Source: a virus
Reading direction: 5' to 3' (one strand)
Virus record (IMG/VR): IMGVR_UViG_3300048587_000983
DNA: 64,000 nt
Each line of letters opens with the position of its first letter. The stretch's first letter is position 1. Position numbers and translations under genes: made by a program. The notes under the pieces were generated by a model. The model saw nothing but the letters and a program-made list of their open reading frames with translations. It did not search any database and was not told the origin of the DNA. Positions 1 through 7,188 of this stretch are shown here, piece after piece.

Positions 1-2
1 AA

Positions 3-479
3 AAAGTAAGCGACACGAGCTTTTGGAGCAAGGACAACGCCGGCAGGCGTCTTCAGGATTTTGAAGCCAAAATCGATTTCTCCGCTCTGAGCTTTATCTC
101 GCTCAACTACGGCGACGACGCCATTATAAGCCGGGAGGACGAGACTGCCTATATCGAGCAGATGAACAGGATGTTTGAAAGCCTCGGCGAGGAGGGTCGC
201 GTAACGCCTGGGAAGTACGTCCACAAAACAGCCGTCGTAAAAGCCACGCAGCACGGGGTTCTTCTCAACGACCTTCAGATACGGCGCGTGCTCGGCTATC
301 TTTTTGACCGCATTCAGAGAATAGAGATTGCCAAAGCCGGGTCGAGCCTCAGGCTTCTTCCGGAGACGATCCGTGTGACGCTCAGCGATGGCAACCAATC
401 GAAGTCGATGGACTTTGGGACCTTCATCGCAACGCTCGATACGCTCTCGTTCTATAAAGCCTACAAAGCCGCGGAGTAA
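3..479 (+). CDS. cas7: Cas7fv-like (type I-Fv/I-F2 Cascade backbone) protein, 5'-truncated by the window edge
   Basis: Frame +3 is open from base 3 (KVSDTSFWSKDNAG...). The motifs DTSFWSK, LSFISL and KYVHK...HGVLLNDLQIR match, in order and spacing, my recollection of the Shewanella putrefaciens Cas7fv C-terminal half (STSFFSK, LQFISL, NYVRR...CGILLNDDAVK). It is followed by a Cas5fv-like gene and the array. Recalled comparison, not a computed alignment. Confidence 0.72.
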   Translation, partial: KVSDTSFWSKDNAGRRLQDFEAKIDFSALSFISLNYGDDAIISREDETAYIEQMNRMFESLGEEGRVTPGKYVHKTAVVKATQHGVLLNDLQIRRVLGYLFDRIQRIEIAKAGSSLRLLPETIRVTLSDGNQSKSMDFGTFIATLDTLSFYKAYKAAE

Positions 480-481
480 GC

Positions 482-1588
482 ATGCACCTTCTCATTCGGG
501 CGCGCAGCGGCGGGCTCATTATAAAAACGGACACAAACGGCTACTGCGCCATGGACCTTTGCGAGGGTGAGGGGGAAAGGTTTCTGCCCCTCTGCGGCGA
601 GTCGATGCGCCGGGGAATGCTCTCTTATATCCTTGGTGAGGTGAGGCGAGTGCATGCCAAGCACTCCGAGCCGCCCCTTTTCGATGACCCCATGCGCGAG
701 ACCATGCTCGCGCGGATGAAGTGCCGCGTTGTAAGAGAGCCCTTTTGCCACACGGTCTTCGGACAGTATTCGTCGAAGGTCCTTCCGAGCAAAATAAGGA
801 TTGACGATTTCGGCTGGCAATATGCGAATACGCTCATCGCGCACCTCCGCCCTGCACTGACGAGGGTCACGGGCGCCGAGAGCCTTGGCGACGTGAATGC
901 GGCCCTCCAGGATGCCCTCTCGGTGTCCGCGGTGAGACAGAGGCGATTTCATGTGGCACTGAAGAAAAAGAGCGAAGGCAAGGAGTTGAAAGAAGTCGAT
1001 CTTCTGGCGCTTCGCTACAAGGACGAGCTCGAAGCCGCCGTACCAAAGCTCGACCGTTTTAATGCGACTTCCAAAATAGAGAGCAAGTTCCTCGAATACC
1101 TGGGGCAGGCCGCAGGGTATATCCACAATGGCTTTTCCGGACGAAAGATTCCGGTATCAAAGACCCACTTTGAGCTGCTCGGGGAGATTCACCGCCTCTG
1201 CGGCGACCCCACATGGCGCGACCGGTTGAACGATGTGAAATCCACGAAGTTCTCGATCATTCCTTATCCGCAGCACACCGGCCAGTGGGTGGATATCCCG
1301 CCGGAACGTGTCCTTTATGTTCGCGGCGCACCCATGACTTTTGCGACCACGGATTTCGACCTTCTCATTGAAAATCTGACCGAAGAAGAGGAGGCGCGTG
1401 TACGAAGTGGCCCCATGAGCTGCTTTTACGGCAAGTGGGGCACAGGTTTTGTGTCTCTCGAATACAGCTTGCCAAAGGGCGATTTCGATGCGAGTTTCCC
1501 TGTTTTAAGCGAGGCTTCTCTAAAAGCCGCGGGCGTCGATTTTCCAAGGGTAAAGACAGAAGCGGGCAGCGAGGAGGAGGAGCGGTAG
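482..1588 (+). CDS. cas5: Cas5fv-like RAMP protein (368 aa)
   Basis: N-terminal RGMLSYILGEVRRV resembles Cas5fv MGVLNRLIGDQRKL. C-terminal SCFYGKWGTGFVS resembles the Cas5fv Gly-rich loop SSFYLGKKGLAYVS (both recalled). Size and position after cas7fv fit the I-Fv gene order. Confidence 0.6.
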   Translation: MHLLIRARSGGLIIKTDTNGYCAMDLCEGEGERFLPLCGESMRRGMLSYILGEVRRVHAKHSEPPLFDDPMRETMLARMKCRVVREPFCHTVFGQYSSKVLPSKIRIDDFGWQYANTLIAHLRPALTRVTGAESLGDVNAALQDALSVSAVRQRRFHVALKKKSEGKELKEVDLLALRYKDELEAAVPKLDRFNATSKIESKFLEYLGQAAGYIHNGFSGRKIPVSKTHFELLGEIHRLCGDPTWRDRLNDVKSTKFSIIPYPQHTGQWVDIPPERVLYVRGAPMTFATTDFDLLIENLTEEEEARVRSGPMSCFYGKWGTGFVSLEYSLPKGDFDASFPVLSEASLKAAGVDFPRVKTEAGSEEEER

Positions 1589-1621
1589 AATGAGCTAATA
1601 ATCCTGTGCATTGAGAGCTTT

Positions 1622-2985
1622 GCTCCTCGGAGCGTTATGCGTCGCTTACATCGGCTCTCGCGGCCCCAAAAAAGGGGGCGTCAGGTCGCGCACAAGGCGT
1701 GCGCGGTAGGTGAAGGTAGGAAATAAAAAATCAGGCTCGAAAGAGCGTTAGAAAAGAGTAGAAGCTTGGGCAAGGGCACGCCGCTCGGTAAAGAGCGTTA
1801 GAAAAGAGAAAATGATGCGACAGACGCCCGTCCGCTCAATAGGGAGCGCTAGGAGAGAATAGTCGAGAAACCAGATATATTTCAGCTCGTGAGAGCGCTA
1901 GAAGAGTATCGAAGCTGTGACTCCCTGCTCGTGAGAGCGTTAGGCAAATAAGCCAGTATTTGGTGCACACGGTGCGCGATAGGAGATAGAGCGGGGAACA
2001 TCGTGAAAGGCGCGATAGAAGGAAAGGATCCGCGAAACGCGGCCTGCAAAGCTCCTTCGGGAGCGTTAAAGGGATAGAAGGCACGCCAAGCAACGCCTTT
2101 GCTCGTGGAGCGCTATACCAGCGCTCGCAAGAGCGGTAGGAGGAAGTCCACGGAAATCCCCATAGAGGGCAGCTCTTACGCGAGCGGTATTTGAAAGGAC
2201 CTTAATGTTCACAGCGGCTCGAAAGAGCGATAGACGGAAAGACTGTGTTTCTGTGGAGGGCTCCCTTGGGAGCGATAGGCAGGGCTGGTGGGCGGGTGGA
2301 ATGAAAGCTCCACATCTACCGAGCGATAGGCAGGATAAGTTTGCGTGCTTGATTGGCTCGAAGGAGCGATAGACGGTGCATTTCACGATGCGAACAAAGG
2401 CTTCAGAAGCGTTAGACGGTGACCGTGCGAGCGGCAGAGTGTTCTTTGGAACGTTAGAAAAATAGACGATATCGCACCACTACGGCTCGAAAGAGCGATA
2501 AAGGTCAGCTGAAACGAAGTCCCGTAATGCTCGATGAGCGATAGAAAAGGACAGCTAAAAGTTAGCTATGCAGTGAGCTCCTTGGAGCGATAGCAGACAT
2601 TCAACCTCACTGTGGGCCAGCCTTGCTCCGTGGAGCGTTAGATGGAAGGTAGGCCTCCTTAGACCGATGGGCATGACCTGCTCGCTTTGGAGCGTTAGGA
2701 GACAAGTGCAGGAGCAGGGATTTGATTAAAGCTCGAAGGAGCGATAGAGGAACTATAAATTCATTTACATGGTCGGCTGTGCTCGAAAGAGCGTTACGAA
2801 ACAAGCCTTAGAAGGCGGGAAATCGGAAAGCTCAAAGGAGCGATAAGCGGCAAGATTACGGATAGGGTTTCAAGAAGGCTCGAAAGAGCGATAGCAGAAA
2901 GCGGCATTAGGTCGGCCTCGCAGAAGGCTCTGAGAGCGGTAGAAGGATTTAATCATAAATTGATGCGTGCCGGAAGGCGCGAGCG
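1622..2985 (+). CRISPR. Degenerate CRISPR-like hairpin array, about 29 units (plus 2 weaker units)
   Basis: 29 hairpins are each followed by GNTA(G). The GNTA motifs start at 1634, 1705, 1747, 1797, 1848, 1897, 1939, 1978, 2014, 2065, 2112, 2135, 2186, 2229, 2274, 2325, 2368, 2411, 2453, 2497, 2540, 2589, 2637, 2694, 2743, 2793, 2842, 2890 and 2938. 24 of 29 stems are GCTC/GAGC. Intervening sequences are unique. Weaker units at 1663-1684 and 2967-2985. Confidence 0.85.
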
Positions 2986-3020
2986 AGTGTGCCAATTTCT
3001 GTAATTTCACGCGGGAAATT

Positions 3021-3040
3021 GGTATAAGGCTTTTGTAGGA
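3021..3040 (+). promoter_or_regulatory. GGTATAAG phage promoter-like motif
   Basis: GGTATAAG GCTTTTGTAGGA. The upstream TTTCTGTAATTTCA (2996-3009) is repeated exactly at 26665-26678 with the same spacing. Confidence 0.65.
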
Positions 3041-3109
3041 AGAGGACTTAGCTTTGAGCTGAGTCCTCTTTTTAATTTTGAAACATAAAAATTTAAATCA
3101 GGAGAGCGC

Positions 3110-5613: not shown

Positions 5614-7188
5614 ATGAAATCGCAACTTTTGTATTCGCTCGTTCTCTACAGTACCCTTGCCGCCTGCGGTGCCGATTCCGGCTCCGGTGTGGCGCCCGTA
5701 ACCCTTCCCACCAGCGTTCCAGCACCGGTCGCAAAACCAACTGATGAAGCCAAAGTAGAGGCGAAGGCTGAAAGCAAAGTCGAAGCCCCTATCGAAGCTC
5801 AAAAGACGGCGACCCCCGCAGTCGAGGAGACTGCTCCTGCCAAGGCTTTGAAGCTCACAGACCCGGACTGCGTTGACCCCAACCTGGCCGAAGTCAAAAC
5901 CGGTGTTCAGCTGATGCTCTGCGACGGCACGATCGCCACGGGTACGCTTGTCATCCCCGCCGCCCCTGACCTTAGCAACCTCACAGCCGGAAACGTAAAA
6001 TCGGGTGTGACGATTGCCGGTGTCACAGGAAACTATGCTGGCGCTTCCTACAGCTCCTGCTCGGCCAACGGCGAGGAAGGCTGCGTAACGAACGCCAGCT
6101 TCAAAGCTGCCAACCTCAGTAACCTTTCAGCTGCCAACGTAAAGTCGGGTGTGACGATCGCTGGCATCACCGGATCGCTTGCCGTGGAGTCGCATGTCGA
6201 CTGCAGCGCAAACGGTCAGTCGGGCTGCGTCGCCACATCCACCTACAAAGCCGCTGATATTGCAAACCTCTCGGCTGCCAACGTAAAGTCGGGTGTGACG
6301 ATTGCTGGCGTTTCCGGTTCGCTCGTCGTTGAGTCGCACTCGGACTGTACTAGCAACGGTCAAACGGGTTGCGTTACGGGCGAGACCTACAAGGCCGCTG
6401 ACCTTACAAACCTTGTGGCTGCAAACCTCAAAAATGGTGTGGCCGTCGCCGGTGTGACCGGTACCTACCCTTCGGCTTCGGCCCCTCTGGCCTCGGCCAC
6501 CGCAACTGCCGACCTCGATGCGGCCACGTTCAACCTGAAGATCAAATCGGACGCCCAATTTGAATACTTTGATTCAACCGGCGCCCGCCATACCCAGACA
6601 GGTAACTCGGCCTTGACAGCCGAAAACATTAAATCCGATGTGACCCTCTTCAATGTCTCGGGTACTCTTGAACCCGCAAGTGAAATCACGATCGACCCGT
6701 GGGATCTTCGCTTCGGCAAGACTGTCAATGGTGTCTCGGGTAAACTCAAGGCTCACTGCCGGACTCACGACAGCGGGACCGTTCCCGTTGGCGAAAGCTG
6801 TGCTCAAAATGAAATCTGGCAGGACCTGACCTCGCTCTCGTCTTCGACAGCATCGACCTGCGCCGGGGACCCCTCCAACTGCATGTGGAAGGACCGCATC
6901 TCGGGACTGTACGTGTCCAAGCAAATGGGTAGCGGTAACCGCAACACAGCCGTCAACGGTTGTCTGAACCTCGTCTACGGCGGTTTCGATGATTGGCGTC
7001 TTCCTTCCTCCGATGAGGCTATCACGCTCTCAACCCACGGTGCCGCCGAAAACAGCGTTGTCGCATGGTATGGCTCGTGGACGTCGAGCACATACTCGAT
7101 GAGCTATTACATCGCTATCATGGGGGCTAGCGTCGGCGCTCTAAAAACGGCCAGCGACACGGCCAACTACTTTTGCGTTCGCAAGTAA
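5614..7188 (+). CDS. Lipoprotein with 48-aa Cys-containing repeats and a C-terminal DUF1566/Lcl-like domain
   Basis: Lipobox LAAC; Pro/Ala linker; repeats; GGFDDWRLPSSDEAITL and terminal YFCVRK are typical of DUF1566. Confidence 0.7.
   Translation: MKSQLLYSLVLYSTLAACGADSGSGVAPVTLPTSVPAPVAKPTDEAKVEAKAESKVEAPIEAQKTATPAVEETAPAKALKLTDPDCVDPNLAEVKTGVQLMLCDGTIATGTLVIPAAPDLSNLTAGNVKSGVTIAGVTGNYAGASYSSCSANGEEGCVTNASFKAANLSNLSAANVKSGVTIAGITGSLAVESHVDCSANGQSGCVATSTYKAADIANLSAANVKSGVTIAGVSGSLVVESHSDCTSNGQTGCVTGETYKAADLTNLVAANLKNGVAVAGVTGTYPSASAPLASATATADLDAATFNLKIKSDAQFEYFDSTGARHTQTGNSALTAENIKSDVTLFNVSGTLEPASEITIDPWDLRFGKTVNGVSGKLKAHCRTHDSGTVPVGESCAQNEIWQDLTSLSSSTASTCAGDPSNCMWKDRISGLYVSKQMGSGNRNTAVNGCLNLVYGGFDDWRLPSSDEAITLSTHGAAENSVVAWYGSWTSSTYSMSYYIAIMGASVGALKTASDTANYFCVRK
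5971..6462 (+). repeat. Intragenic tandem repeat, 144-nt period, about 3.4 copies
   Basis: Units start at 5971, 6115, 6259 and 6403 (L.NL.AANVKSGVTIAGV.G......C..NG..GCV....YKAAD). Confidence 0.85.

Follow-up and report, generated by a model that had tools for sequence, protein, structure and literature searches.

A candidate phage-borne Cascade derivative with an inherited array of hairpin-separated guides

The type I-F2 (I-Fv) system of Shewanella putrefaciens (Cas6f, Cas7fv, Cas5fv, Cas2-3 and Cas1; PDB 5O6U, 5O7H, 9G44) builds its Cascade from three proteins, with neither Cas8 nor Cas11, and its guide-target hybrid is interrupted at regular intervals (PMC12956352). In phages, CRISPR arrays are usually compact, with a median of six repeats (PMC7162821). 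Our literature searches also turned up phage CRISPR systems missing adaptation or interference genes, as well as Racr repeat mimics, the CreA/CreR mini-CRISPRs and TIGR-Tas, but no description of a Cas6e-like/Cas7fv/Cas5fv-like module accompanied by long arrays with structure-only repeats and vertically inherited guides. Here we analyze a locus of this kind at the start of a 64,000-nt stretch of DNA (the window), which is taken from the minus strand of the 166,638-bp virus record IMGVR_UViG_3300048587_000983 of IMG/VR, rated complete (100%) by CheckV.

We consider it reasonably probable (about 60%) that the locus encodes a phage-borne derivative of the minimal type I-F2 effector, without Cas1-Cas2 and Cas3, which carries a hard-wired library of guides and acts as a multiplex DNA-binding or silencing Cascade. 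Its features are as follows, with positions counted in the window and, where a feature reaches beyond base 1, also in the contig L002.

About 457-948 nt before base 1 (L002:3507-3998, minus strand): cas6e-like gene, 163 aa, directly upstream of the cas7fv-like gene
1-479, plus strand: 3' part of the cas7fv-like gene; the whole gene (L002:2571-3494, minus strand), with its start 444 nt ahead of base 1, encodes 307 aa
482-1588, plus strand: gene for the Cas5fv-like subunit, 368 aa, predicted by its structural model to have an RRM core of the repeat-associated mysterious protein (RAMP) type and an alpha-helical insertion at about residues 111-250
1616-2985, plus strand: guide array of about 29 units, each with a hairpin of 4-6 bp (usually GCUC-N4-GAGC), the motif G-N-U-A-n-n-n-R-R and a unique guide
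3041-3080, plus strand: probable intrinsic terminator, read from the sequence, with an 8-bp stem formed by 3041-3048 and 3062-3069 around a 13-nt loop, and then a T-run

The guide array and its periodic conservation

The original prediction, made from the letters of the window, described two open reading frames (ORFs) followed by about 29 hairpin-GNTAG units with unique spacers, and reading the window confirms this layout. The ORFs lie at 3-479 (open at its 5' end) and 482-1588. The units fill the region from 1616 to about 2985 at periods of 36-57 nt, and in each of them a short hairpin is directly followed by GNTA and then G, A, T or C; those at 1747, 1797 and 2453 do read GTTAGAAA, as had been quoted. 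The first ORF is present where it was placed, but it is only the 3' half of the 307-aa gene. The TAG stop of the second ORF is itself embedded in a GAGC-GGTAG half-unit.

In order to identify related systems, we examined homologs of the 368-aa protein and their genomic surroundings. There are 12 close homologs (64-90% identity), all encoded after a cas7fv-like gene, and nine further distinct phage loci could be defined (L003, L004, L005, L008, L009, L010, L012, L014 and L015). All nine carry cas6, a cas7fv-like gene (PF28157) and a homolog of the second ORF, followed by 1.2-2.6 kb of gene-free DNA that holds 18-47 detectable hairpin-GNUA units. Homologous loci with similar arrays, which had been proposed as a check, thus do exist in other phages, and in all of these loci the gene trio adjoins the array. 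The gene order is cas6-cas7-cas5-array with intergenic gaps of only 1-12 nt in most loci, and the operon includes neither a large (Cas8) nor a small (Cas11) subunit. Alignment scans with the Cas5-like or Cas7 proteins across viral, genome and metagenome contig collections gave no matches.

Some variation in this arrangement was also observed. An ORF of 61-70 aa (61 aa in L008) lies between cas6 and cas7 in L008 (6861-7046) and in a second contig, the one carrying the same Cas5-like protein, P0008; the Cas6 of L008 has a 22-residue N-terminal extension. The gene for a distant Cas5-like relative, P0014 (E 8e-17; JGI 3300072015, 4.7-kb contig), is preceded by one for 183 aa and a Cas7fv-like gene, and an ORF of at least 578 aa begins 1 nt past its stop, in the usual place of the array. 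This arrangement may be the one from which the system arose, or a form of it that bears an effector.

The array is a singular feature of the 166-kb genome, where it occurs once. Its two 2-kb bins contain 22 hairpin+GNTA(G/A) sites, every other bin on the same strand contains at most two, and the opposite strand of the entire genome contains 11. Across 10 related arrays, a stem of at least 4 bp precedes 90% of 322 GCGNTA sites, compared with 15% elsewhere in the genome. GNRA loops account for 38 of the 126 four-nt loops, whereas about four would be expected. Stem pairs covary, with U-A replaced by G-C in eight units and C-G by U-G in 18, and 34 units have G.U stem pairs that would be mismatches on the opposite strand. 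Compensatory and wobble changes of this kind, together with the GNRA enrichment, indicate that the unit is an RNA element transcribed in the direction of the cas genes. The alternative that the region codes for protein was ruled out, as unit lengths are not multiples of three and a long ORF is lacking. The folding energy of the whole region is unexceptional, which is expected of an array made up of many tiny hairpins. No Rfam family was found for the array, and a weak sub-threshold sX14 match at 2965-3073 (E 0.029), which overlaps the terminator, was taken as a chance hit.

The positions conserved after the stem are G0, U2 and A3, in most units also G4, and two purines at +7 and +8 (RR in 256 of 296 units). 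The unit tail had been predicted as GNUAG; its GNUA core is indeed conserved, but the real consensus is longer, G-N-U-A-n-n-n-R-R. Only GAGC-G-N-U-A and the two purines are conserved; the loops, the length of the stem and some of its pairs differ between units. The near-identical direct repeats of about 23-50 nt that make up a canonical CRISPR array are absent, and Tandem Repeats Finder reported no repeat in 1600-3000, in keeping with the expectation that repeat-based CRISPR finders would miss the array. The units fall into two length classes 6 nt apart, 42-45 and 47-51 nt (main lengths about 43-44 and 49-50), with the short class making up about one third. Correspondingly, spacer length, measured from GNUA to the following stem, clusters at 26-27 and 32-33 nt. 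Spacers inside one array are almost all unique, and a few appear related. Units 2694/2842 and 1705/1787 share more than the repeat (a start with CAAG. and a common GGG.TTT, for example), which hints at occasional unit duplication as a route of array growth.

In order to compare guides between phages, we anchored all units at the G of GNUA. This yielded 41 clusters of orthologous spacers, which are largely collinear in close relatives and diverge by point substitution. The minimum numbers of substitutions over the 41 clusters are 8, 5, 7, 0 and 1 at offsets 9-13, followed by 32 at offset 14; 10, 7, 11, 10 and 7 at offsets 15-19, followed by 30 at offset 20; and 15, 14, 19, 12 and 14 at offsets 21-25, followed by 41 at offset 26. 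Past offset 26 the level rises, with an extra peak at 32. Offsets 9-13, 15-19 and 21-25 are therefore conserved and offsets 14, 20 and 26 are free, a period of six. Offsets 14 and 20 vary more than the paired positions in 28 clusters and less in eight (Wilcoxon p 8e-6).

The adjacent cas genes provide a neutral reference. Between the window and L005 their four-fold degenerate sites differ at 0.52. The corresponding figure for guide segments 1-3 is only 0.06-0.13, whereas it is 0.61 for every sixth position and 0.64 for the N of GNUA. Paired guide positions thus evolve 4-10 times more slowly than four-fold sites, and sixth positions evolve at approximately the neutral rate. In Cascade structures each sixth base of the guide is flipped out and unpaired, and the seed proximal to the protospacer-adjacent motif (PAM) is the most important for recognition. 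The 5+1 conservation seen here, which weakens towards the 3' end, is the footprint typical of guides that pair with their targets in a Cascade.

This 5+1 pattern of purifying selection on orthologous spacers means that the guides have a function, are hard-wired and are passed on vertically. Each cluster keeps a different sequence, and the constraint therefore comes from pairing with distinct external targets and not from a preference of the protein. The register also places guide position 1 at +9, which would leave a 9-nt handle (8 nt if Cas6 cuts after G0). The central proposal of the original prediction, an RNA-guided system whose repeat has shrunk, is strongly supported by this periodic selection. 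A decaying relic array was considered and rejected on the strength of purifying selection on the guides.

Two further features of the guides were observed. The mid-segment bases +17, +23 and +29 are, beside the main peaks, slightly more variable than the adjoining bases over all loci (11, 19 and 33 substitutions), a weak period-3 harmonic that may reflect a lower mismatch cost at these positions or may be noise. In addition, L003_10487, L012_7072 and L015_3398 share with the W_2368 cluster a nearly identical core, TGCA..TCACGATGCG, shifted by 1 nt relative to the handle, and it may be that different phages address one target in two registers.

The same data bear on whether the locus might be an anti-CRISPR device, in which the hairpins serve as Racr-like decoy repeats, the Cas subunits poison or sequester a host type I complex, and the spacers have no targets. 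Phage repeat mimics and viral cas genes that antagonize host CRISPR are known (PMC10651486; bioRxiv 10.1101/2023.06.24.545427), and no target was found for any guide in the collections searched. However, a decoy needs no specific spacer, whereas orthologous spacers here keep distinct 5+1 sequences while neutral sites are half saturated. The repeats are minimal and they vary, the reverse of what a faithful mimic would show, and the full set of processing, backbone and cap genes is kept in 10 of 10 loci. We therefore regard a decoy function as very improbable.

Proteins encoded at the locus

The 307-aa protein is firmly identified by sequence comparison as a divergent Cas7fv. It matches NCBIfam NF040577 (Cas7fv) with E 6.5e-20 and 71.7 bits, which is under the 200-bit equivalog cut-off, and it also matches the PADLOC Cas7fv profile (2.2e-13) and the Cas7 chains 5o6u_C (5.3e-8) and 9g44_F (5e-8) of the I-Fv/I-F2 Cascade structures. 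Its homologs carry the Pfam domain PF28157 (Cas7fv-like). The assignment of the first ORF to Cas7fv, proposed from its 3' part, is therefore borne out by the full-length protein.

The gene directly upstream encodes a 163-aa protein with a G-rich C-terminal loop, which can be firmly assigned to Cas6. It matches Pfam CRISPR_assoc (2.4e-5) and PADLOC Cas6 (2.6e-6), and its profile hidden Markov model matches include Cas6e, type IV Cas6 and generic Cas6. Foldseek places its AlphaFold2 (AF2) model, with a predicted local distance difference test (pLDDT) score of 86, closest to Cas6e/Cse3 (E 6.5e-7, template modeling score 0.64-0.70, probability 1.0), and no type I-F or Cas6f chains are among the Foldseek matches listed. 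His17 is invariant in the first helix, at what we take to be the site of the catalytic histidine of E. coli Cas6e. A Cas6f had been expected for a Cascade of the I-Fv type; a Cas6 is indeed present directly upstream of the window, but its fold is Cas6e-like and not Cas6f.

The 368-aa product of the second ORF matches no family in Pfam, PHROGs, PADLOC or NCBIfam, and its assignment relies on structural comparison. In its AF2 model (pLDDT 66.8) a beta-alpha (RRM) core is interrupted by a long helical insertion. Foldseek returned only two significant matches, 9g44_B (E 1.7e-4, probability 0.96) and 5o6u_F (E 5.5e-4, probability 0.90), chains of 331 and 336 aa from the I-F2/I-Fv Cascade which we take to be Cas5fv. 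VIA alignment to these chains gave Z 5.4 and 5.2 with 199-215 residues aligned. The next VIA matches (Z 3.6-4.4) were the Cascade chains 4u7u_K/4tvx_H (I-E), 7tr6_P (I-A) and 8ip0_A (I-B), presumably also Cas5 subunits. We therefore call the protein Cas5fv-like with moderate confidence. The original prediction had named it Cas5fv, and while its top full-length fold matches are indeed Cas5fv chains, the Z scores are modest and a link at the sequence level is lacking.

Turning to the missing components, profile searches detected no Cas3_HD, Cas3-like_C_2 or Cas_Cas1 domain in the complete 166-kb genome, although the same searches matched the positive-control genomes. The observation that no nuclease is visible in the window thus extends to the whole genome for Cas3 and Cas1, and the region upstream of base 1, where cas6, cas3 or cas1 might have been encoded, supplied cas6 but not the other two.

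Other genes lie farther upstream. A 398-aa ORF (L002:5106-6302, plus strand) is divergent to cas6, on the opposite strand and about 2.0-3.3 kb upstream of base 1; every longer related locus has a counterpart of 377-533 aa in this position. Sequence comparison with Pfam, NCBIfam and PDB gave no match for the 398-aa protein, which also shows no nuclease or helicase signature, and it could be a regulator, an unrecognized effector or merely a syntenic phage gene. An AEP-TOTE-type primase-polymerase (PrimPol) of 1126 aa (Pfam E 1e-34; L002:8805-12185, minus strand) and an SNF2 helicase of 623 aa (L002:12190-14061, minus strand) are encoded 5-11 kb upstream of the cas genes, and their positions are kept in related contigs; together they are probably a phage replication module. 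Within the window, a 144-bp tandem duplication (6121-6413; 2.0 copies, 77% matches) was seen in a 524-aa ORF (5614-7188) that has no PHROG match. The window contains no tRNAs, and no close cultured relatives of the phage were found.

Possible mode of action and targets

The arrangement of the locus suggests the following model. The cas6e-like, cas7fv-like and cas5fv-like genes and the array would be transcribed together, and the transcript would end near 3041-3080, where the terminator probably closes the transcription unit. Cas6 would read each hairpin by its shape and by the invariant GAGC-G...UA context and cut at the 3' base of the hairpin. The mature RNA would then consist of a 5' handle of 8-9 nt, (G)NUAnnnRR, bound by the Cas5fv-like cap, followed by the guide and, at the 3' end, by the next hairpin held by Cas6. 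The Cas5fv-like cap would probably also read a PAM. Four or five Cas7fv subunits may coat the guide, giving rise to the two length classes 6 nt apart; in the I-Fv Cascade the number of Cas7fv subunits is known to go up or down with spacer length (PMC4937334). Target pairing would proceed in 5-nt segments with each sixth base flipped, and recognition would depend mainly on the first two or three segments (about 11-17 nt). Since there is no Cas1 to regenerate repeats by duplication, the repeats may have drifted to the minimum that the proteins recognize.

The complex would act by binding, through silencing or blocking similar to CRISPR interference (CRISPRi) at many sites in the host or in competing elements, and not in its own phage. 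Binding without cleavage is the likeliest output because there is no Cas3 and because selection is focused on the first 11-17 nt. Limited complementarity leads to binding without cleavage in CreA/CreR (bioRxiv 10.1101/2023.03.10.532045), and a similar mode has been proposed for nuclease-less phage systems (PMC7162821). In this model we infer RNA processing, assembly of the complex, DNA and not RNA as the target, the silencing outcome and the identity of the targets. More tentatively, and at somewhat less than even odds, we suggest a wider interpretation: a family of large phages carries a vertically inherited library of 20-50 guides, with selection on about 11-17 seed-proximal nucleotides and with decayed repeats, and uses it for multiplex CRISPRi against host, host-defence or competitor loci, as an innate and not an adaptive system.

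We searched for targets in several collections. BLAST of 175 spacers against the phage's own genome gave matches at chance level only, and a segment-aware search of that genome, which ignored the sixth base and used two, three or four segments, gave counts equal to those of shuffled controls. The array had no blastn match in phage and plasmid collections at E values up to 1. A scan of IMG/VR with four segment patterns produced a single match, in a large ORF of an AT-rich unrelated phage, which we judged to be chance. There is likewise no sign of spacer acquisition from invaders, with no Cas1 and no protospacer in phage, plasmid or viral collections.

A scan of metagenome contigs with one 17-base pattern gave 65 matches, about the number expected by chance, but 24 of these fall in one homologous gene, encoding an XRE-type helix-turn-helix (HTH) antitoxin beside a BrnT toxin (L079:2769-3170 and 23 further loci). 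The L079 match (2854-2872) is perfect over 19 nt, which cover segments 1-3 of guide W_2368/L010_7756 together with its two free positions as they stand in the L010 version. The fourth segment matches at only three of five bases, variants of the orthologous guides would be non-synonymous in the antitoxin gene, and no other guides are enriched in contigs with BrnT/HTH-antitoxin genes. We therefore treat this match as a lead only; statistically it is indistinguishable from a chance match amplified by an abundant conserved gene. The match recurs in contigs of many samples, whose accessions look like soil or sediment metagenomes.

Another possibility is that the guides serve other phage machinery, for example by recruiting the PrimPol or SNF2 proteins, or target RNA such as host transcripts. 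The PrimPol and SNF2 genes are found upstream in all long loci, and Cascades have been co-opted for non-defence roles, as in CRISPR-associated transposons (CASTs; PMC11656645). However, synteny inside one phage family is weak evidence of linkage, and several unrelated small genes lie between the two modules. As for RNA, type I Cascades in which a Cas5 helical domain reads the PAM bind double-stranded DNA (PMC12956352), and guides were not enriched for matches to an E. coli rRNA/tRNA operon that was taken to represent universal RNAs. We regard these functions as very unlikely.

Several points weigh against a silencing Cascade of the I-F2 lineage. Because no target was found in the collections searched, it is only the lack of a nuclease that points to silencing. 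In a search independent of Foldseek the Z score for Cas5fv (about 5) ties with those of generic RRM domains, and profile searches show no sequence-level link between the 368-aa protein and Cas5fv, which is why we keep this label at moderate confidence. In the closest pair, the window and L010, entire spacers resemble each other far more than neutral sites do, 3' parts included, so that either longer pairing matters or arrays were recently exchanged. Ortholog pairs were moreover picked by similarity over offsets 9-31, which inflates absolute conservation but cannot create periodicity. Finally, the conserved 398-aa gene could be an unrecognized effector of the system, and in I-F2 it is Cas7 and Cas5 that directly bring Cas3 to the Cascade, with no Cas8 (PMC12956352), so that a host Cas2-3 might be used.

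The last two points suggest a different outcome, in which the complex is a true interference effector that borrows a nuclease, either a host Cas2-3 (provided that the host carries a type I-F or I-F2 system) or an unrecognized phage protein such as the 398-aa neighbor, and destroys the DNA of the host or of competitors. Phages without interference genes have been proposed to use host Cas proteins (Al-Shayeb et al., PMC7162821), a gene of the 398-aa type stands beside cas6 in every locus, and P0014 is followed by the large ORF instead of an array. However, conservation of the guides is concentrated in the first 11-17 nt, whereas I-F2 interference by Cas3 is sensitive to PAM-distal mismatches (PMC12956352). 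I-Fv spacers shortened by 6 nt gave no immunity (PMC4937334), and about a third of the units here are short. The phage has no Cas3 domain and the 398-aa neighbor no nuclease or helicase signature. We consider interference with a borrowed nuclease unlikely, and silencing by binding remains our preferred reading.

Comparison with known systems

If the guides act as proposed, the locus exemplifies a different evolutionary regime for CRISPR, in which the array is a heritable, gene-like library under purifying selection and not a record of infections. The footprint of Cas7 can be read at single-nucleotide resolution in the substitutions of the guides, and the locus defines a minimum for recognition by Cas6 and Cas5, a stem of about 4 bp and GNUA..RR. 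Since such a minimal repeat is missed by CRISPR finders, more loci of this kind may be hidden in phage genomes. With three proteins totaling about 840 aa, very short spacing between guides and two guide lengths, the system would also be a natural multiplex scaffold, attractive for multiplexed CRISPRi. Were the targets host genes, the library would represent a new kind of host take-over program.

TIGR-Tas resembles the phage locus as a phage-associated, non-canonical guide array that standard CRISPR finders miss. Its units, as published (PMC12385481), are 36 nt long with two spacers each, and its protein has a Nop domain. Units of the phage locus are 42-51 nt long and hold one guide, and the proteins are RAMPs (Cas6, Cas7 and Cas5-like); no Nop domain was found in the three adjacent cas proteins. 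CreA/CreR shares with the phage locus degenerate repeats and fixed guides and, if our reading holds, PAM-proximal pairing and an outcome of binding and repression instead of cleavage. However, CreA/CreR consists of single units that depend on a full host CRISPR-Cas system, whose own promoter or a toxin they regulate, whereas the phage locus has an array of 20-47 or more units with a dedicated effector that lacks a nuclease, and its guides have no match in its own genome.

Systems of huge phages that lack nuclease or adaptation genes (Al-Shayeb et al. 2020), type IV-A CRISPRi and CASTs are similar in that mobile elements carry Cascade-type effectors without Cas1-2 and/or a nuclease, which are thought or shown to act by binding. 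Unlike the phage locus, all of these keep canonical, near-identical repeats; in addition, Csf1 and DinG are part of type IV, and TniQ and TnsABC of CASTs. For none of these systems have repeats conserved only in structure, or guides that are inherited vertically under selective constraint, been described.

The closest likeness is to I-F2. Both have a three-protein gene set with a backbone of the Cas7fv family and neither Cas8 nor Cas11, and the phage complex is predicted to resemble I-F2 also in a variable number of Cas7 subunits, a cap that combines an RRM core with a large helical insertion, and a 5+1 reading of the guide. In contrast to I-F2, the phage locus has no Cas1 or Cas2-3, its Cas6 is Cas6e-like and not Cas6f, its genes are ordered cas6-cas7-cas5, and its Cas7 scores 71.7 bits against a cut-off of 200. 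Its repeat is a variable 4-6 bp hairpin with GNUA..RR, while I-F2 repeats are 28 nt long and near-identical, and its arrays are inherited and diverge by point mutation. Because Cas6f, Cas2-3, Cas1 and canonical repeats are lacking, we regard the phage locus as a derived Cascade-like variant and not as a member of I-F2.

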